NCBI RefSeq assembly: GCF_041248615.1
Contig: NZ_CP158426.1
Origin: Escherichia coli
GTDB taxonomy: Bacteria > Pseudomonadota > Gammaproteobacteria > Enterobacterales > Enterobacteriaceae
Strand: one strand, 5' to 3'
Length of the DNA: 64,000 nt
The notes under the pieces were generated by a model that saw nothing but the letters and a program-made list of their open reading frames with translations, was not told the DNA's origin and did no database searches. Positions 1 through 33,060 of this stretch are shown piece by piece. The position numbers and the translations under genes were made by a program. The first letter of the stretch is position 1; every line of letters starts with the position of its first letter.

Positions 1-843
1 TATACCGCTTTCAGCCCGCTGGTGACGGCTTTGTAATCCTTCCACGACACGAATTTCAGGCTGTTGCGCACCATATGGATGATGCAGAGCTGAATATGCG
101 TCTGCGGGTACACGCTATTTATCGCTTCCGGGAAGCCTTTCAGGCCGTCCACGAAGGCGATAAGGATATCGTTCAGGCCGCGATTTTTCAGTTCCGTCAG
201 TACATTCAGCCAGAACTTTGCACCTTCATTTTCGGCCAGCCACATATCCAGCAGCTCTTTCTGACCGTCGGTATTGATGCCCAGCGCGAGGAACACCGCT
301 TTGTTAATGACACTCCCGCTGTGACGAACCTTAACCACAATACAGTCAAGATAAACAATGGGATACAGTGCATCCAACGGTCGGTTTTGCCATTCAGAGA
401 CCTGTTCTTTAACCGCATCGGTCACTTTGGATATCAGCGTGGGCGAGACATCGGCGTCGTACATTTCTTTGAAGGCTGAGGTAATTTCGCGGGTAGTCAT
501 CCCTCTGGCATACAGCGCCAGGATCTGGTTGTCCATGCCGGTAATGCGGGTCTGATTTTTCTTCACCAGTTGTGGTTCGAAGGTATTTTCACGGTCACGC
601 GGCGTGTTAAGTTCGATCTCGCCATCATCGCACAATACCGTTTTTGACGAGTAGCCATTACGGGTATTAGAGCCTGATTTAGGAGCATTTTTCTCATGAC
701 CTAGATGGTCAGTCAGTTCTGCATTGAGCGCCGTTTCGACGGTAAGCTTTGTCAACATGCGTGAAAACTGGTTGAGGTCGGCTTCGGTTTTAAGGCCTTT
801 GGCCAGTTCAGCCGCAAGGACTTTAAGTTTCTTTTCGTCCATC
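1..843 (-). CDS. IS256-family transposase, N-terminal ~280 aa (C-terminus lies beyond window start)
   Basis: Translation homologous to the intact 402-aa IS256-family transposases at 14961 and 57100. Confidence 0.8.
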
Positions 844-990
844 GTTTGCCTGTCTCCGTTGTTGGAGTGAACATATCAAAAACAGGCAATTACACAATTT
901 TAATTACAGTCTCTTCAGAATGGGTAATCAGTGACCGTCCTGACGGTCACTTTAAAGAAAATGCATATTACACAGAATGGTAAACAGGCT
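1..990 (-). mobile_element. IS256-family insertion sequence (variant A), partial at window start; left end near 990 with ~150-nt leader containing palindrome gtgaccgtcaggacggtcac
   Basis: Minus-strand transposase starts at 843 (MDEKKLK...); terminal sequence gagcctgtttacc (rc) near 990; positions 121-582 identical to 21530-21992. Confidence 0.75.
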
Positions 991-1039
991 CAACATAGAG
1001 CTTGAAGGTAGTTGTTGCCTTGTAATAAAATGTGTGATT

Positions 1040-3126: not shown

Positions 3127-4320
3127 TTACTTGCTTTTGCAGCAGCGCCAGATAAATACAGTCACCATGCTAAATAATACAGCGGCAAATAATGCCATCA
3201 CAATCAGTGCTATTGCGACACCTGTTTTCGACACCAATGGTACCAACAACGCGCAAAGCCCATAGCCAAGTGTGTGACTGCAAGCGAGCCAGCCCGCGCC
3301 TGCGCCGTCGGCCAGCTTATCATTCAGTAAAAGTTGATAAGCGGGGGTTGCCAGAGCAGCTCCAAATGACAGCACTGCACAGCCTAGGTAAAACAACCAT
3401 AGCTGTTCAGCGAGCATGATAGCCAGACCACTACTCATCAACACCCCGGCACTCAGGAGCAGAGCCACTGGAGTCAGGCGCTGTGGACGGAGTACCACGA
3501 ACTGCGCGATAAGCGCAGCTATTGCGGACAGCCCCAACAACCACGCTACCTGTTGGCTAATAGTGGTGGTATCAGTGGCGAACTGGCGAGTAAGGGCTGG
3601 AGAAAGTCCAAGCTGCATCATGCTCATTGCCGCAGCCAGTAACATTGCGCAAAGCAGATAAGGCAGGAAATCCCGCTTCAGGCTGACGCTCTTGCGCTCC
3701 GGTGTGGGCTGTGGTGGTGTGCCGGGCAACCGCAGAAGCATCACCAGTGCCAGCGCTGGCGCTGCCATCAGCATCCACACTGGCGCCAGAGGGTGAATGA
3801 CCAACATTGCCGCCGCGCACAGCGGCCCGAATAGCCTGCCGCAGCTCAGGCCGGAGCTGATGGTTGCCAGAGCGGCCATGCGATTCCCATCTCCCGCTCT
3901 CTGCAATGCCCAGACCTGACAGGCTGGCACCATTGCTGACACGGTCAGACCGTAGACGATCCGGGCGATGATTAATATTCCCAACCCCACCGCTTTTGTT
4001 ACGGCACCGGTAGCCATCAGCACGCTTCCCAGCCCAAGCAGGGTAAAGCTTACGCCATATCCTCCCAGAGCCCACAGCACCACAGTCTTACTGCCAGTAA
4101 GGGAAATTTGCTTTCCCCACCATGGGGAAGATGGCAGAAACAGCATTGAGCCCAGCATCAGCAGGGCAGCCCATACAGACAGACTCAGATTTGTCTGTAT
4201 GACCAGAACAGGGAGTACAACCAGCAGACCGTTCTGTCCGATACCGAGAAGACCGGCACTGAACGCCAGTGGCCAGCAGGACAGGGTTTTTTGGGGCGTA
4301 TCTTCGATCTTAGATGACAT
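3127..4320 (-). CDS. shiF: MFS transporter ShiF-like, divergent from iucA
   Basis: 397-aa polytopic membrane ORF immediately upstream of and divergent from iucA. Confidence 0.8.
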   Translation of the reverse strand: MSSKIEDTPQKTLSCWPLAFSAGLLGIGQNGLLVVLPVLVIQTNLSLSVWAALLMLGSMLFLPSSPWWGKQISLTGSKTVVLWALGGYGVSFTLLGLGSVLMATGAVTKAVGLGILIIARIVYGLTVSAMVPACQVWALQRAGDGNRMAALATISSGLSCGRLFGPLCAAAMLVIHPLAPVWMLMAAPALALVMLLRLPGTPPQPTPERKSVSLKRDFLPYLLCAMLLAAAMSMMQLGLSPALTRQFATDTTTISQQVAWLLGLSAIAALIAQFVVLRPQRLTPVALLLSAGVLMSSGLAIMLAEQLWLFYLGCAVLSFGAALATPAYQLLLNDKLADGAGAGWLACSHTLGYGLCALLVPLVSKTGVAIALIVMALFAAVLFSMVTVFIWRCCKSK

Positions 4321-4394
4321 TGTAATGTTTCAACACCATGTATTAATTGTGTTTATTTGTAAAATTAATTTTTCTGACAATAACATTTCTCATT

Positions 4395-4413
4395 GATAAT
4401 GATAATCATTATT
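4395..4413. promoter_or_regulatory. Fur box in shiF-iucA intergenic region (gataatgataatcattatt)
   Basis: Near-perfect match to Fur consensus GATAATGATAATCATTATC ~45 bp upstream of iucA start. Confidence 0.85.
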
Positions 4414-4455
4414 GACATAATTGTTATTATTTTACTGTGTAGGAGCTGTTTGATT

Positions 4456-6180
4456 ATGATCCTGCCCTCTGAAAAATCCGCCACAGATGTGGCTGCGCAG
4501 TGCTTCCTGAATGCCTTGATTCGTGAAACCAAAGACTGGCAACTGGCGGAATACCCGCCAGACGAATTGATTATCCCGCTGGACGAACAGAAGTCGCTCC
4601 ATTTCAGAGTGGCTTATTTCTCCCCAACCCAGCATCACCGCTTTGCATTTCCTGCTCATCTGGTCACGGCATCAGGCAGTTATCCTGTCGATTTTACCAC
4701 TCTCTCCCGGCTTATTATTGACAAGCTCCGGCATCAACTTTTTCTGCCAGTTCCCCTCTGCGAAACTTTCCACCAACGCGTGCTGGAAAGCTACGCCCAT
4801 ACGCAACAGACAATTGATGCCCGCCATGACTGGGCCATCCTGCGTGAGAAAGCGTTGAATTTTGGCGAGGCTGAGCAGGCACTGCTGACAGGACACGCTT
4901 TCCACCCTGCACCTAAGTCTCATGAACCGTTTAACCGCCAGGAAGCTGAACGATACCTGCCTGACATGGCACCTCACTTCCCGCTGCGGTGGTTTTCGGT
5001 GGATAAAACGCAAATCGCTGGTGAAAGTCTGCATCTTAACCTTCAACAGCGGTTGACGCGATTTGCCGCAGAAAATGCGCCCCAGTTACTCAACGAATTA
5101 AGTGACAATCAATGGCTGTTCCCGCTGCACCCGTGGCAGGGAGAATATCTTTTGCAGCAGGTGTGGTGCCAGGCACTTTTTGCTAAAGGACTTATCAGAG
5201 ACTTAGGCGAGGCCGGCACGTCGTGGCTGCCGACCACCTCTTCCCGCTCCCTCTACTGTGCTACCAGCCGCGATATGATCAAGTTCTCCCTGAGCGTTCG
5301 GCTGACCAACTCCGTCCGTACTCTGTCTGTGAAAGAGGTGGAGCGAGGAATGCGCCTGGCACGTCTGGCGCAAACCGACGGCTGGCAGATGCTACAGGCC
5401 CGCTTCCCTACTTTCCGGGTAATGCAGGAGGACGGCTGGGCCGGGCTGCGCGATCTTAACGGCAACATCATGCAGGAAAGTTTGTTTTCCCTGCGTGAAA
5501 ACCTGCTGCTGGAGCAGCCGCAAAGCCAGACCAACGTTCTGGTTTCCCTGACTCAGGCCGCACCGGATGGCGGTGATTCGCTGCTGGTTTCGGCGGTAAA
5601 ACGCCTGAGCGATCGCCTCGGTATCACTGTGCAACAGGCCGCCCACGCATGGGTCGATGCTTACTGTCAGCAGGTGCTGAAGCCTCTGTTTACGGCTGAA
5701 GCGGATTACGGCCTGGTGCTGCTGGCGCATCAGCAAAATATTCTTGTGCAGATGCTTGGGGATCTGCCGGTCGGATTTATTTACCGTGACTGCCAGGGCA
5801 GCGCGTTTATGCCTCACGCGACAGAGTGGCTCGATACCATTGACGAGGCGCAGGCGGAAAATATTTTCACCCGTGAGCAGTTGCTGCGCTATTTCCCTTA
5901 TTACCTGCTGGTTAACTCCACTTTTGCCGTAACTGCTGCGCTGGGTGCTGCCGGGCTGGACAGCGAAGCGAATCTGATGGCTCGTGTACGAACATTGCTG
6001 GCTGAAGTGCGTGACCAGGTGACTCATAAAACCTGTCTCAACTATGTTCTGGAAAGTCCGTACTGGAACGTAAAAGGTAACTTTTTCTGTTATCTGAACG
6101 ATCATAACGAGAACACCATCGTTGACCCTTCGGTGATCTATTTTGATTTCGCTAACCCGCTGCAGGCTCAGGAGGTCTGA
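4456..6180 (+). CDS. iucA: Aerobactin synthetase IucA (NIS synthetase)
   Basis: ORF start taken at MILPSEK (4456) with AGGAG RBS; operon order iucABCD-iutA. Confidence 0.93.
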   Translation: MILPSEKSATDVAAQCFLNALIRETKDWQLAEYPPDELIIPLDEQKSLHFRVAYFSPTQHHRFAFPAHLVTASGSYPVDFTTLSRLIIDKLRHQLFLPVPLCETFHQRVLESYAHTQQTIDARHDWAILREKALNFGEAEQALLTGHAFHPAPKSHEPFNRQEAERYLPDMAPHFPLRWFSVDKTQIAGESLHLNLQQRLTRFAAENAPQLLNELSDNQWLFPLHPWQGEYLLQQVWCQALFAKGLIRDLGEAGTSWLPTTSSRSLYCATSRDMIKFSLSVRLTNSVRTLSVKEVERGMRLARLAQTDGWQMLQARFPTFRVMQEDGWAGLRDLNGNIMQESLFSLRENLLLEQPQSQTNVLVSLTQAAPDGGDSLLVSAVKRLSDRLGITVQQAAHAWVDAYCQQVLKPLFTAEADYGLVLLAHQQNILVQMLGDLPVGFIYRDCQGSAFMPHATEWLDTIDEAQAENIFTREQLLRYFPYYLLVNSTFAVTAALGAAGLDSEANLMARVRTLLAEVRDQVTHKTCLNYVLESPYWNVKGNFFCYLNDHNENTIVDPSVIYFDFANPLQAQEV

Positions 6181-7128
6181 ATGTCTGGGGCAAACATTGT
6201 TCACAGCGGATATGGACTGCGCTGTGAAAAACTCGACAAGCCTCTGAATCTTGGCTGGGGGCTGGACAATAGCGCGGTGTTGCACTGGCCCGGGGAGCTG
6301 CCAACAGGATGGCTGTGCGACGCGCTGGATCAGATATTTATCGCCGCACCACAACTTTCAGCAGTGGTTCTTCCCTGGTCCGAATGGTGTGAGGAGCCAC
6401 AGGCGCTGACGCTTTTCGGACAGGTACAAAGCGACATTATCCATCGTTCCGCTTTCTGGCAGTTACCGTTATGGCTGAGTTCTCCGGCAAACCGGGCCTC
6501 CGGTGAAATGGTTTTTGATGCAGAGCGTGAGATTTATTTCCCGCAGCGCCCCCCCCGTCCGCAGGGTGAAGTTTATCGTCGTTACGATCCACGCATTCGC
6601 AGGATGCTGAGTTTCCGCATTGCCGATCCCGTTTCTGATGCAGAACGTTTCACTCGCTGGATGAACGATCCGCGCGTTGAGTATTTCTGGGAGCAAAGTG
6701 GCTCACTGGAGGTACAGATCGCCTATCTGGAACGCCAGCTCACCAGTAAACATGCATTCCCGCTGATTGGTTGTTTCGACGATCGGCCGTTCAGTTATTT
6801 CGAAATCTACTGGGCGGCGGAAGACCGCATTGGTCGCCACTATTCGTGGCAGCCCTTTGACCGTGGCCTGCATCTGCTGGTTGGTGAACAGCAATGGCGC
6901 GGAGCCCACTATGTGCAAAGCTGGCTGCGCGGGGTGACACATTACCTGCTGCTGAATGAGCCACGTACGCAGCGCACAGTACTGGAGCCACGCACCGATA
7001 ACCAGCGCCTGTTCCGCCATCTTGAGCCTGCGGGATACCGGACAATTAAAGAGTTCGACTTCCCACATAAACGCTCGCGCATGGTGATGGCGGATCGTCA
7101 TCACTTCTTCACGGAGGTCGGTCTGTAA
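6181..7128 (+). CDS. iucB: N6-hydroxylysine O-acetyltransferase IucB
   Basis: 315-aa ORF abutting iucA stop; operon context. Confidence 0.92.
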   Translation: MSGANIVHSGYGLRCEKLDKPLNLGWGLDNSAVLHWPGELPTGWLCDALDQIFIAAPQLSAVVLPWSEWCEEPQALTLFGQVQSDIIHRSAFWQLPLWLSSPANRASGEMVFDAEREIYFPQRPPRPQGEVYRRYDPRIRRMLSFRIADPVSDAERFTRWMNDPRVEYFWEQSGSLEVQIAYLERQLTSKHAFPLIGCFDDRPFSYFEIYWAAEDRIGRHYSWQPFDRGLHLLVGEQQWRGAHYVQSWLRGVTHYLLLNEPRTQRTVLEPRTDNQRLFRHLEPAGYRTIKEFDFPHKRSRMVMADRHHFFTEVGL

Positions 7129-8870
7129 TGAATCACAAAGACTGGGATTTGGTCAACCGCCGCTTGGTGGCAAAAATGTTGTCTGAGCTGGAGTATGAGC
7201 AGGTTTTCCACGCGGAATCTCAGGGCGATGACCGCTACTGCATTAACCTGCCGGGAGCACAATGGCGCTTCATCGCTGAACGTGGTATCTGGGGCTGGCT
7301 CTGGATTGATGCTCAAACTCTGCGCTGCGCGGACGAGCCAGTACTGGCTCAGACGCTGCTGATGCAGCTAAAGCAGGTACTGTCAATGAGCGATGCAACC
7401 GTTGCTGAGCATATGCAGGATTTGTATTCCACGCTGCTGGGCGACCTGCAACTGCTGAAAGCCCGTCGCGGGCTGAGCGCCAGTGACCTGATTAATCTTA
7501 GTGCCGACCGCCTGCAATGCCTGCTGAGCGGTCATCCTAAATTCGTTTTTAATAAAGGTCGCCGTGGCTGGGGTAAAGAGGCGCTGGAACGATATGCGCC
7601 AGAGTATGCCAACACCTTTAGACTGCACTGGCTGGCGGTAAAACGTGAACATATGATCTGGCGCTGTGATAACGAGATGGATATTCATCAGTTGTTGACG
7701 GCCGCAATGGATCCGCAGGAGTTTGCCCGCTTCAGTCAGGTCTGGCAGGAAAACGGACTGGATCATAACTGGCTGCCGCTGCCTGTACATCCGTGGCAGT
7801 GGCAGCAAAAAATCGCCACCGACTTCATCGCTGATTTTGCCGAAGGCAGGATGGTGTCTCTCGGCGAGTTTGGCGACCAGTGGCTCGCCCAGCAGTCGCT
7901 GCGTACCCTGACCAACGCCAGTCGCCGGGGTGGGCTGGATATCAAGCTGCCGCTGACCATCTACAACACCTCATGCTACCGGGGGATTCCTGGCAGATAC
8001 ATCGCTGCCGGACCACTGGCTTCACGCTGGCTACAACAGGTTTTTGCGACCGACGCTACCCTGGTGCAAAGCGGTGCAGTGATCCTTGGTGAACCGGCTG
8101 CAGGCTATGTCTCCCATGAAGGCTATGCCGCGCTTGCCCGGGCTCCCTATCGCTACCAGGAAATGCTTGGTGTTATCTGGCGGGAGAATCCGTGCCGCTG
8201 GCTGAAACCGGATGAAAGTCCGGTTCTGATGGCAACACTGATGGAGTGCGACGAAAACGATCAGCCGCTGGCAGGCGCATATATAGACCGCTCCGGGCTG
8301 GACGCTGAAACCTGGCTTACGCAACTGTTCCGGGTGGTCGTGGTTCCTCTGTATCACCTGCTTTGCCGCTACGGTGTCGCGCTTATTGCACATGGACAAA
8401 ATATAACGCTCGCCATGAAAAAGGGGGTTCCACAGCGTGTTCTGCTGAAAGACTTCCAGGGCGATATGCGGCTGGTGAAAGAAGAGTTCCCCGAAATGGA
8501 CTCTTTGCCTCAGGAGGTTCGTGATGTTACATCCCGCCTGAGTGCGGACTACTTAATCCATGATTTGCAGACGGGTCACTTCGTGACAGTACTGCGTTTT
8601 ATTTCGCCACTGATGGTTCGTCTTGGCGTACCTGAACGGCGATTTTATCAACTGCTGGCAGCAGTGTTGAGTGATTACATGAAAAAACATCCACAAATGT
8701 CAGAGCGTTTTGCGCTTTTCTCACTTTTCAGGCCACAAATCATTCGCGTGGTGCTGAACCCGGTAAAACTGACCTGGCCTGATCTGGATGGCGGCAGCCG
8801 CATGCTGCCGAATTACCTTGAGGATCTGCAAAATCCGCTGTGGCTGGTAACTCAGGAATATGAATCATGA
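7128..8870 (+). CDS. iucC: Aerobactin synthetase IucC (NIS synthetase)
   Basis: 580-aa ORF overlapping iucB stop; paralogous to IucA. Confidence 0.93.
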   Translation: MNHKDWDLVNRRLVAKMLSELEYEQVFHAESQGDDRYCINLPGAQWRFIAERGIWGWLWIDAQTLRCADEPVLAQTLLMQLKQVLSMSDATVAEHMQDLYSTLLGDLQLLKARRGLSASDLINLSADRLQCLLSGHPKFVFNKGRRGWGKEALERYAPEYANTFRLHWLAVKREHMIWRCDNEMDIHQLLTAAMDPQEFARFSQVWQENGLDHNWLPLPVHPWQWQQKIATDFIADFAEGRMVSLGEFGDQWLAQQSLRTLTNASRRGGLDIKLPLTIYNTSCYRGIPGRYIAAGPLASRWLQQVFATDATLVQSGAVILGEPAAGYVSHEGYAALARAPYRYQEMLGVIWRENPCRWLKPDESPVLMATLMECDENDQPLAGAYIDRSGLDAETWLTQLFRVVVVPLYHLLCRYGVALIAHGQNITLAMKKGVPQRVLLKDFQGDMRLVKEEFPEMDSLPQEVRDVTSRLSADYLIHDLQTGHFVTVLRFISPLMVRLGVPERRFYQLLAAVLSDYMKKHPQMSERFALFSLFRPQIIRVVLNPVKLTWPDLDGGSRMLPNYLEDLQNPLWLVTQEYES

Positions 8871-10144
8871 AAAAAAGTGTCGATTTTATTGGTGTAGGGA
8901 CAGGGCCATTTAATCTCAGCATTGCTGCGTTGTCACATCAGATCGAAGAACTGGACTGTCTCTTCTTTGATGAACATCCTCATTTTTCCTGGCATCCGGG
9001 TATGCTGGTACCGGATTGTCATATGCAGACCGTCTTTCTGAAAGATCTGGTCAGTGCTGTTGCACCTACAAATCCCTACAGCTTTGTTAACTATCTGGTG
9101 AAGCACAAAAAGTTCTATCGCTTCCTTACAAGCAGACTACGTACAGTATCCCGTGAAGAGTTTTCTGACTACCTCCGCTGGGCTGCTGAAGATATGAATA
9201 ACCTGTATTTCAGTCATACCGTTGAAAACATTGATTTCGATAAAAAACGTCGATTGTTTCTGGTGCAAACCAGCCGGGGAGAATATTTTGCCCACAATAT
9301 CTGCCTTGGTACAGGAAAACAACCTTATTTACCACCCTGTGTGAAGCATATGACACAATCCTGTTTCCATGCCAGTGAAATGAATCTTCGTCGGCCGGAC
9401 CTTAGTGAAAAACGGGTAACCGTGGTTGGTGGAGGACAGAGTGGTGCAGACCTGTTCCTTAATGCATTACGCGGGGAATGGGGAGAAGCGGCGGAAATAA
9501 ACTGGATCTCCCGGCGGAATAATTTTAACGCACTGGATGAGGCTGCTTTTGCTGATGAGTATTTTACACCTGAATATATTTCAGGCTTCTCCGGACTGGA
9601 GGAAGATATTCGCCATCAGTTACTGGATGAGCAGAAAATGACATCGGATGGCATCACTGCCGATTCTTTACTGACCATTTATCGTGAGTTGTACCACCGT
9701 TTTGAAGTTCTGAGAAAACCAAGAAATATCCGTCTGCTACCCAGCCGCTCGGTAACAACTCTGGAAAGTAGTGGTCCTGGCTGGAAGTTGCTGATGGAGC
9801 ATCATCTGGATCAGGGCAGGGAGAGCCTGGAAAGTGATGTGGTGATTTTCGCCACAGGTTACCGTTCTGCGTTGCCACAAATACTTCCCTCACTGATGCC
9901 GCTGATCACCATGCACGATAAGAACACCTTTAAAGTGCGTGATGACTTCACTCTGGAATGGAGTGGCCCGAAAGAGAACAACATCTTCGTGGTCAACGCC
10001 AGTATGCAAACCCATGGCATCGCCGAACCTCAGCTCAGCCTGATGGCATGGAGATCTGCACGTATTCTTAATCGTGTAATGGGACGTGATTTATTCGATC
10101 TCAGTATGCCGCCCGCCCTGATTCAGTGGCGCAGCGGCACCTAG
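8867..10144 (+). CDS. iucD: L-lysine N6-monooxygenase IucD
   Basis: 425-aa ORF with N-terminal FAD-binding GVGTGP motif; overlaps iucC stop. Confidence 0.92.
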   Translation: MKKSVDFIGVGTGPFNLSIAALSHQIEELDCLFFDEHPHFSWHPGMLVPDCHMQTVFLKDLVSAVAPTNPYSFVNYLVKHKKFYRFLTSRLRTVSREEFSDYLRWAAEDMNNLYFSHTVENIDFDKKRRLFLVQTSRGEYFAHNICLGTGKQPYLPPCVKHMTQSCFHASEMNLRRPDLSEKRVTVVGGGQSGADLFLNALRGEWGEAAEINWISRRNNFNALDEAAFADEYFTPEYISGFSGLEEDIRHQLLDEQKMTSDGITADSLLTIYRELYHRFEVLRKPRNIRLLPSRSVTTLESSGPGWKLLMEHHLDQGRESLESDVVIFATGYRSALPQILPSLMPLITMHDKNTFKVRDDFTLEWSGPKENNIFVVNASMQTHGIAEPQLSLMAWRSARILNRVMGRDLFDLSMPPALIQWRSGT

Positions 10145-10225
10145 GGAAAACGCAGCCGGAGGCTGCTTCTTTAACTCGCTACACAGCATCTTTGGGCTGA
10201 TTTTTTCCGCCCGTGTGGAGGAATA

Positions 10226-21529: not shown

Positions 21530-21992
21530 ATCGCTTCCGGGAAGCCTTTCAGGCCGTCCACGAAGGCGATAAGGATATCGTTCAGGCCGCGATTTTTCAG
21601 TTCCGTCAGTACATTCAGCCAGAACTTTGCACCTTCATTTTCGGCCAGCCACATATCCAGCAGCTCTTTCTGACCGTCGGTATTGATGCCCAGCGCGAGG
21701 AACACCGCTTTGTTAATGACACTCCCGCTGTGACGAACCTTAACCACAATACAGTCAAGATAAACAATGGGATACAGTGCATCCAACGGTCGGTTTTGCC
21801 ATTCAGAGACCTGTTCTTTAACCGCATCGGTCACTTTGGATATCAGCGTGGGCGAGACATCGGCGTCGTACATTTCTTTGAAGGCTGAGGTAATTTCGCG
21901 GGTAGTCATCCCTCTGGCATACAGCGCCAGGATCTGGTTGTCCATGCCGGTAATGCGGGTCTGATTTTTCTTCACCAGTTGTGGTTCGAAGG
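21530..21992. repeat. ~462-bp direct repeat of 121-582 (shared 3' segment of two IS256-family variants)
   Basis: Identical antisense translation and matching nucleotides; 5' parts of the two elements diverge. Confidence 0.8.
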
Positions 21993-22323
21993 AACCATCA
22001 CGATCAGGTGGAGTACGTAATTCCATCGGCCCGTCGGTAGTGGTGACGGTTTTCGTGGAATAGCCATTACGGAAGTTGGTTCCCGATTTGGTCTGATTTT
22101 TTTCATGTCCCAGATGGTGAGTCAGTTCAGCGTTGAGAGCTGCCTCAACACTTATTTTCTTGAGCAGGCGATCGAACTGACTGAGATCTTCAGGGGTTTT
22201 GAGATTTTTGGCCAGTTCGTTAGCCAGAGCCTGCAATTGTGTGTCGTCCATAATTTAGCTTTCATTTGATGTTGAATTGAACATATCAAAATCAGGCAAT
22301 TACATAAATCTATGTACAGGCTC
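21531..22323 (-). pseudogene. IS256-family element (variant), 3'-truncated at the IS200 fragment; left inverted repeat at ~22310-22323
   Basis: 263-aa transposase N-terminal part; rc of the end reads gagcctgtacatagatttatgtaattgcc. Confidence 0.75.
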
Positions 22324-23171: not shown

Positions 23172-23696
23172 ATGAAACGTAAACTTATTGCCTTTGTGAT
23201 TCTGGCTACATCATCCTGTGGATATGCAGCCACCAAAGATGTAACAATGAATCTTGTTGATAGTGACGGAAAAGAGCGAAATATTGGTAAAATAACCATC
23301 CAGAAGACACCCTACGGGCTGCTGTTCACCCCTGATCTTCACTCCTTACCCGCCGGCATTCATGGTTTTCATGTACATGAAAACGCAAGTTGTGCTCCTG
23401 CCCTGAAAGATGGAAAAACTGTCGCTGCTTTATCTGCAGGTGGTCACTTTGACCCGGAAAAAACAGGGAAGCATCTCGGTCCATGGTCTCCTGATGGCCA
23501 CCTAGGTGATCTCCCTGCGCTTTATGTCACTCATGACGGAAAAGCAACCTACCCGGTGCTTGCGCCAAGACTATCTGAATTAAAGGAGCTCGATGGCCGT
23601 TCGCTAATGCTCCACGCAGGAGGTGATAATCATGATGACCATCCTGAACCTCTAGGTGGCGGTGGTGCAAGAATTGCCTGTGGTATCATCCCATAA
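23172..23696 (+). CDS. sodC: Periplasmic Cu,Zn superoxide dismutase
   Basis: Signal peptide; Cu/Zn-SOD motifs GFHVHE and [12 protein letters not shown]; GAGG RBS. Confidence 0.85.
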
Positions 23697-32761: not shown

Positions 32762-33060
32762 GCTATGTTCTGACGAGAGTGTAATTTAAATTTTGTAATT
32801 GCCTGTTTTTGATATGTTCCCTACACCGTGGAGACAGGCAATTGATAAACAAGAATCCAATGCTATTGCTGCCGAACTGGTAAATTGCCTTAAAACCGAA
32901 TCTGATCTTAACCTGTTTTTATACATGCTTACGAAGTGTACTGTTAAAGATGAGCTTAGCGCTGAACTCACAGAGCATCTTGGACATGAGAACACCTGAG
33001 AATAAAGGCAGCAATGCAAGTAAAGACTACTCGATTAAAACGCTGCTCATAAATGATGCC
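32762..33060 (+). pseudogene. IS256-family (variant A type) 5' fragment lacking outer terminal repeat; transposase residues ~1-60
   Basis: tgtaatttaaattttgtaattgcctgtttttgatatgttc matches the variant A leader; begins immediately after the ibrB stop. Confidence 0.6.

Follow-up and report, generated by a model that had tools for sequence, protein, structure and literature searches.

In a stretch of 64,000 nucleotides from Escherichia coli (assembly GCF_041248615.1, contig NZ_CP158426.1; referred to as the window), we analysed two inactive insertion sequences (IS) of the IS256 family: element A, a copy of ISEc39 at the left edge of the window, and element B, a truncated copy of an unnamed lineage 21 kb away. 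Judged from their sequences, it is highly probable that the two elements exchanged internal sequence by non-reciprocal homologous recombination (gene conversion), that a later crossover deleted the module between them, which carries aerobactin and Sit genes, and that a palindrome next to element A plays no part in ISEc39. The pair represents a fully resolved natural case of inactive IS fragments that are still reshaping a pathogenicity island, with donors, tract ends and private markers visible because the partners come from different lineages.

The window is colinear with the GI-pheV region of strain SMS-3-5 at 99.7% identity, the two differing by one IS2 and one IS1414 insertion. The colinear region falls inside the limits given for GI-pheV in SMS-3-5 (3,197,159-3,289,098; PMC11537424). 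For comparison, 5,426 complete E. coli genomes, 72,556 plasmids and 100,044 species-representative genomes were surveyed. Copies named by the Prokaryotic Genome Annotation Pipeline (PGAP) in CFT073, Nissle 1917 and ATCC 25922 served as reference for ISEc39, the name resting on NCBI annotation. A first-pass annotation of the window had counted four IS256-family copies and fragments, which is too low, as five coding pieces and two terminal relics were found. The following features concern elements A and B (window positions, unless given for locus L001, which continues past the window edge):

1-913, minus strand: element A, an ISEc39 copy of the IS256 family that runs past the window edge (full length 1314 bp, L001 3088-4401); assigned by identity to the CFT073 copy, the canonical start at window 913 and Pfam/NCBIfam matches
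914-921, minus strand: 8-bp target-site duplication ATTCTGAA of the ISEc39 insertion (right copy past the window, L001 4402-4409); a single ATTCTGAA is present in the empty site of strain APEC E956
121-583, minus strand (element positions 793-331): block in element A; exactly identical to 21530-21992 and 90% identical to canonical ISEc39
573-476, 475-249 and 234-159, minus strand: sub-tracts of the block in A, which are B-type, ISEc39-type and B-type, respectively; 158-121 contains no informative sites
21515-22323, minus strand: element B, the 5' 809 bp of an unnamed IS256-family lineage; 5' part 95-97% identical to B-lineage copies, with Pfam/NCBIfam matches
21530-21992, minus strand: block in element B; ISEc39-type tract at about 21884-21658, remainder B-type
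21515-21529, minus strand: 15 nt specific to the B lineage past the block, TAATGCCGTCTATCC (in A: AAATAGCGTGTACCC); by alignment, 14/15 to ECONIH4 and other B-lineage copies
21281-21514, plus strand: IS200/IS605 tnpA fragment, annotated as a tnpA pseudogene, which abuts and truncates element B

The 463-bp block and its two parental lineages

The first-pass annotation had described an identical 3' segment of 462 bp, ending at position 582, in two elements with divergent 5' halves. The identity is real, although its extent and position had to be corrected: window positions 121-583 equal 21530-21992 exactly over 463 nt, both on the minus strand and within transposase genes of the IS256/Mutator type, and the block spans positions 331-793 of a 1314-bp IS. 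It is therefore internal and bounded on both sides. Upstream of the block (in sense orientation), identity between A and B drops to 62% for coding sequence and to 75% for the terminal repeat and leader, and the predicted N-termini, MDEKKLK in A and MDDTQLQ in B, were recovered by translation. A maximum chi-square scan with 1000 permutations placed a sharp boundary at element position 331 (175.8, compared to at most 20.8 in the permuted data), so that divergence is not uniform along the elements. The probability of 463 identical sites at the divergence rate of the 5' part is about 1e-85. On the 3' side, element A departs from B at 5/15 positions just past the block. Since B resumes the sequence of its own lineage for these 15 nt before the IS200 cut, the block is bounded here as well. 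Identical block-bearing sequence occurs in dozens of independent complete E. coli chromosomes, which excludes an assembly artefact.

Outside the block, element A is, by its sequence, a copy of ISEc39. Canonical ISEc39 copies start exactly at window position 913, and the 5' 330 nt of element A are 99.1-99.4% identical to PGAP-named copies of CFT073, Nissle 1917 and other strains. Compared to the CFT073 copy, identity amounts to 100% in the terminal repeat and leader, 99% in the 5' coding part, 100% in the 19 nt just after the block and 99% in the 3' part (about 500-520 nt), but only to 90% in the block. Element A shares with canonical ISEc39 the ends, the 1314-bp length class and the 8-bp target duplication, while it differs by 39 substitutions of the other lineage's type at positions 341-438 and 680-755, plus four private ones. 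The left and right ends of ISEc39 match at 22 of the first 30 positions (imperfect terminal inverted repeats), and IS1414 is built likewise. The transposase reading frame begins at window position 842 and matches Pfam PF00872 (E=9e-114) and NCBIfam NF033543 (E=4e-125); the NF033543 score lies above the cut-off for A, B and IS1414. Element A is a pseudogene owing to an A6/A7 frameshift beyond the window edge (L001 4270-4282, A6 instead of A7 near codon 372). The ISEc39 copy of CFT073 is a pseudogene too, with a different lesion (a 1-nt deletion near element position 106), and no intact ISEc39 transposase was seen among the few copies inspected.

Element B has the tip of its left terminal repeat at 22323 and its start codon at 22251. 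It retains the left end only, the C-terminal 40% of the transposase being gone, and the fragment still matches Pfam PF00872 (E=2.9e-73). Its 5' part is 95-97% identical to copies in ECONIH4, p09-00049, pCFSAN004180G and MS14384, and these nearest relatives are all pseudogenes or truncated. Inside the block, identity to its own lineage is 87-89%. Thousands of E. coli chromosomes, those of K-12 derivatives among them (for example DH5alpha, NZ_CP076470.1 4553863-4553964), harbour a 102-nt relic of a B-lineage left end, which shares 95% identity with window 22322-22221 and often bears the annotation hypothetical protein. Because this relic is so widespread, the B lineage seems to be old and extinct in E. 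coli.

To map the origin of the block, we used 127 informative sites at which canonical ISEc39 and the B lineage differ. Element A carries 31 ISEc39-type sites (263-330) followed by 27 B-type sites (341-438) and a mixed pair (439 A-type, 440 B-type). The next 46 sites (458-665) are ISEc39-type except 509, which belongs to neither lineage, and 530, which is B-type; 12 B-type sites (680-755) and finally 9 ISEc39-type sites (794-827) complete the series. In element B, the sites up to 438 are B-type, those at 439-665 agree with A, and all those from 680 onwards are B-type again. Hence element A was itself converted and the block is internally mosaic, two points which, like the module deletion described below, the first-pass annotation had missed. 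Four private substitutions (509, 594, 667 and 760) occur in neither parental lineage and are common to both copies; two of them replace conserved residues, namely a G by D in LLGMW and a C by F next to VDGLKG. Pure ISEc39 and the pure B lineage differ at about 96/463 block positions, with a parental identity of 74-88% within the block region compared to 64% in the 5' part. Three of the four tract boundaries lie within runs of parental identity at 441-457, 666-679 and 762-793 (14-32 nt, the last being the longest found), as homologous exchange predicts. The 3' end of the block falls just short of the point where homology with the truncated element B stops.

Probable conversion history and loss of the aerobactin/Sit module

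The bounds of the exchanged sequence differ between the elements: A is ISEc39-type up to 330 and from 794, and B is B-type up to 438 and from 680. The tracts of A that are B-type are B-type in B too, and the ISEc39-type tract of B is ISEc39-type in A too. As the patches are the same in both copies rather than complementary, the transfers were non-reciprocal and represent gene conversion. Recombination between related IS variants, as proposed in the first-pass annotation, thus stands, with each copy carrying tracts of the other's lineage. Cycles of reciprocal crossover, with excision and re-integration, were rejected as the source of the mosaic, since they would predict complementary patches.

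On the sequence evidence, at least two nested transfers are needed. In a first step, an ISEc39-type tract (about 439-667, some 210-240 nt) would have been copied into B. In a second step, a longer stretch of the modified B (about 331-793, some 415-463 nt) would have been copied into the ISEc39 copy. The outcome would be the perfect 463-bp direct repeat with a B-type / ISEc39-type / B-type interior. This order, in which B was modified first, appears to be the most economical history because all four private substitutions then move in a single step; the opposite order takes the same number of events or one more. The direction given here is a proposal from parsimony. The sequences are suggestive of a RecA-type mechanism.

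Gene conversion among non-functional IS copies has been reported for the Wolbachia strain wBm (Cordaux 2009, Mol Biol Evol 26:1679, described in PMC3196728). As far as that description goes, in both cases IS copies of a single genome that no longer transpose were homogenised non-reciprocally. The wBm copies are described there as one IS family member, similar genome-wide, whereas A and B belong to two lineages that are about 65-88% identical and contain short nested tracts, with donors and tract ends visible.

The two blocks form direct repeats 21,409 bp apart, which enclose the following cargo:

3127-19810, no strand assigned: shiF-like major facilitator superfamily transporter gene, iucABCD, iutA, ISL3 and IS1 fragments, an IS1414 copy and sitDCBA; delimited by colinearity with SMS-3-5 and annotation

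An ordinary crossover between the 463-bp repeats would delete the shiF-like gene, iucABCD-iutA and sitABCD and leave a single hybrid element composed of the 5' part of B, the block and the 3' part of A. This predicted hybrid was found over 1315/1315 nt, with 2 mismatches, in strain 702/18 (human, Germany) and strain EF5-18-41 (chicken, Laos; loci L016 and L017). Its left flank equals the flank of B (100% over 3 kb) and its right flank matches that of A. At the hybrid loci, sodC directly adjoins the sigma-like and YadA-like genes, the intervening iuc, iut and sit genes being absent. The 8-mers at the ends of the hybrid differ (CCGGCATT versus ATTCTGAA), which shows that it is a recombinant and not an ancestral insertion. 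Because it holds the complete mosaic block including the private substitutions, the deletion postdates the conversions. In at least one lineage, the module was deleted by crossover between the blocks. The reciprocal junction (5' part of A, block, 3' end of B, IS200) was found in none of the genomes, the top matches being unrelated juxtapositions or the normal A copy; an excised circle would not be expected to last.

Whole modules such as shiF-iucABCD-iutA have been inferred to be lost through flanking IS in GI-pheV (PMC11537424). The present case concerns the same type of island; in contrast to the previous one, it defines exactly both what recombined, namely a 463-bp converted repeat shared by two non-identical IS, and what resulted, namely the hybrid. 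The converted repeat is the precise substrate through which the aerobactin (iuc/iut) and Sit genes were lost in sequenced isolates, and these genes are markers in the typing of extraintestinal pathogenic E. coli (ExPEC) and avian pathogenic E. coli (APEC) strains. In SMS-3-5, iucD is annotated as frameshifted (L015 34461-35794, corresponding to window positions of about 8867-10200). According to this annotation, the aerobactin operon enclosed by the repeats may have lost its function in some carriers already.

Both phenomena, gene conversion among dead IS and IS-mediated module loss, are of known kinds. The case is a clean instance of them, not a new mechanism, and leaves the current understanding of IS biology unchanged. 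For annotation, it cautions that pseudogenes labelled as IS256 family transposase can be chimeras between lineages. It may tentatively be speculated that conversion between divergent dead IS relics was the rate-setting step for the loss of the virulence module. If so, a pair of about 75-88% identity would have been turned into a perfect 463-bp repeat and the aerobactin/Sit segment from stably fixed to readily deletable. The stability of the island would then be set by the conversion history of its IS debris and not by active transposition or integrases.

Distribution of the mosaic and competing explanations

Several observations weigh against the proposed history of conversion and deletion. 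No intermediate, unconverted allele turned up, so that the proposed number, direction and order of transfers follow from parsimony only. The pure B parent is absent from the sample and, as the nearest relatives are only 95-97% identical in the 5' part, a few of the calls as B-type or private could reflect unsampled variation of the B lineage. At the 5' boundary (331-340), the parents are identical over no more than about 10 nt, which is short for RecA-dependent exchange. With regard to the deletion, both hybrid genomes contain the same two variants and perhaps represent a single event, and a higher deletion rate after homogenisation would be no more than plausible.

The distribution of the block bears on where the mosaic arose. 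At an identity of at least 99%, the block was found in 70 E. coli records, all of them at these loci, and no E. coli genome gave a match between 95% and 99%. Canonical ISEc39 copies are uniformly 90.3-90.8% identical to the block. None of the plasmids surveyed exceeded 91% over the full block, and a 40-mer across the junction of B-type and ISEc39-type sequence was absent from the species-representative genomes. Searches for unconverted alleles retrieved only mosaic ones, at 94.7% for a synthetic A allele (A-locus flank with canonical ISEc39) and at 92.3% for a synthetic B allele (ECONIH4-type centre with the IS200 junction). Among the sampled genomes, the mosaic is limited to this island. Because it occurs only at these loci and no unconverted allele was retrieved, the conversions appear to have taken place in situ and to be older than the common ancestor of all sampled carriers.

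A third lineage as donor of the whole block was rejected, since none was found among the E. coli genomes, plasmids or species representatives. The plasmid lineage of pZ1323PEC0010-2 (L011), which is 84% identical to A, is not the source of the block either. In strain 729_270514_x_12 (L012), a cluster of four substitutions in the A copy (545-551) is an exact match to IS1414. This looks like a conversion tract from a third lineage, IS1414, and suggests that conversion among the IS256-family copies of the island was not a one-off event. The tract is very short (7-37 nt), and the genome of this strain is without element B.

An improbable alternative is that the mosaic ISEc39 formed elsewhere and was then transposed here, with its identity to B due to one later transfer or to a block from a third lineage. 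The ends of element A are intact and flanked by a perfect 8-bp target duplication, so that it arrived by transposition, and mosaic IS variants are known in general. Yet the block is found at no other locus in the E. coli genomes, on no plasmid and in no species representative. Identity to it is a uniform 90.5% or so among the remaining ISEc39 copies, and its sole other carrier is the neighbour 21 kb away, which has the same four private substitutions.

IS256-family elements transpose via replicated circular intermediates. One of the transfers might accordingly represent a template switch during the copy-out-paste-in replication of an IS256-family donor, rather than RecA conversion of resident copies, and would yield the same nested pattern in a newly inserted copy. 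We regard this as very unlikely, as the donor ISEc39 and element B would have to be replicated together and the ISEc39-type tract in the immobile, truncated B would stay unexplained; moreover, the IS1414-type micro-patch of strain 729_270514_x_12 indicates that resident copies do convert. That the identity was maintained because purifying selection acts strongly on the transposase's catalytic core has a negligible probability: the block spans the conserved VDGLKGF motif and parental identity is somewhat higher there (74-88% versus 64%), but the pure parents differ at about 96 of the block positions (see above), A and B are both pseudogenes, and both copies carry the C to F and G to D changes in conserved motifs.

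The ISEc39 leader, the neighbouring palindrome and further IS256-family elements

Upstream of the transposase gene of element A, the first-pass annotation had described a leader of about 150 nt with a perfect 20-nt palindrome, possibly acting as a translational control hairpin. This region consists of two unrelated parts, and a paralogous site is present elsewhere in the window:

843-913, minus strand: true left terminal repeat and leader of ISEc39, 71 nt, with a 13-bp stem at about 889-846
914-991, plus strand: 78-bp foreign relic outside the IS, derived from the right end of an IS1414-like IS256-family element (last transposase codons and right terminal repeat); aligns to the right ends of IS1414 and ISEc39 and is seen without ISEc39 elsewhere
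58360-58512, minus strand: second, uninterrupted relic with flank (paralogous empty site), which carries the sequence flanking ISEc39 on both sides at A

The palindrome (931-950) is not perfect, as its 9-bp arms enclose two non-complementary central bases (9+2+9). It lies in the relic, which is inverted relative to the right ends of IS1414 and ISEc39 and translates to ...SDRPDGHF. The arms correspond to the GDR and DGH codons of the C-terminal GDR(L/P)DGH of an IS1414-like transposase; IS1414 itself has 7-bp arms at the corresponding place. The palindrome is outside the element, because ISEc39 starts at 913, ATTCTGAA flanks it on both sides, and the site is empty in APEC E956 (L014), where the uninterrupted sequence equals the pre-insertion sequence rebuilt by removing ISEc39 and one ATTCTGAA.

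That the palindrome serves as a regulatory hairpin for the translation of the ISEc39 transposase is thus hardly credible. Its stem is stable, lies about 90 nt upstream of the start codon and would be part of transcripts reading in from outside. On the other hand, it is located outside the terminal repeat and the target duplication, is missing from about 200 canonical ISEc39 copies, is present at the empty site and is homologous to C-terminal transposase codons. Folding of the 78-nt relic alone was no better than that of shuffled sequences (z=-1.9 and -1.65). According to these comparisons, the palindrome is a relic of IS1414-like C-terminal codons, next to which ISEc39 happened to insert. Sequence beside an IS end can therefore be the relic of another IS and not a regulatory leader, which is a further caution for annotation.

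The true leader contains a stem of its own, in which the inner terminal repeat is predicted to pair with the GGAG ribosome-binding region (-18.4 kcal/mol, z=-3.2). It is also present in a related plasmid lineage and in a decayed fragment at 32768. No compensatory covariation was detected for this stem across seven lineages. In IS such as IS10 and IS50, hairpins at the left end sequester the ribosome-binding site and thereby silence read-through transcripts. The ISEc39 stem has the same arrangement of inner repeat and ribosome-binding site and may likewise silence read-through transcripts; it is a predicted structure, and it is distinct from the palindrome at 931-950.

The inverted right-end relic, together with about 75 bp of AT-rich flank, forms a module of about 150 bp that occurs twice in the window (914-991, continuing past its edge at L001 4402-4485, and 58360-58512) and once beside core genes in APEC E956 (L014 1500-1700). 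Between the copies, the flank is 96% and the relic 86% identical. A second 9+2+9 palindrome at window position 23365 is coincidental, as it lies inside the coding sequence of sodC (GFHVHE motif).

The remaining IS256-family elements of the window are listed below:

14889-16203, plus strand: IS1414 copy 1, 1315 bp, with target duplication ACAAATAA (14881-14888 and 16204-16211)
57028-58342, plus strand: IS1414 copy 2, with target duplication CAACAACA (57020-57027 and 58343-58350)
32768-32990, plus strand: heavily decayed IS256-family fragment comprising the left end and the first ~50 codons; 44% amino-acid identity to the IS1414 transposase

Both IS1414 copies are 100% identical to each other and 97-100% identical to PGAP-named IS1414 (Pfam PF00872, E=2.7e-119). 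Each contains an intact transposase of 402 amino acids and, embedded in the transposase gene, a 38-amino-acid open reading frame for astA/EAST1 (15676-15792 in copy 1). Since copy 1 is missing from SMS-3-5 and the other best-matching genomes, the sequences suggest a recently transposed, active element. IS1414 is connected to the above findings in that the relic with the palindrome resembles its right end and that it donated the micro-patch to the A copy of strain 729_270514_x_12; at 83% identity to the 463-bp block, it was not a partner in the exchange that formed it. The decayed fragment at 32768-32990 still has a recognisable left end with the same GCCTGT...ACAGGC leader stem as ISEc39.

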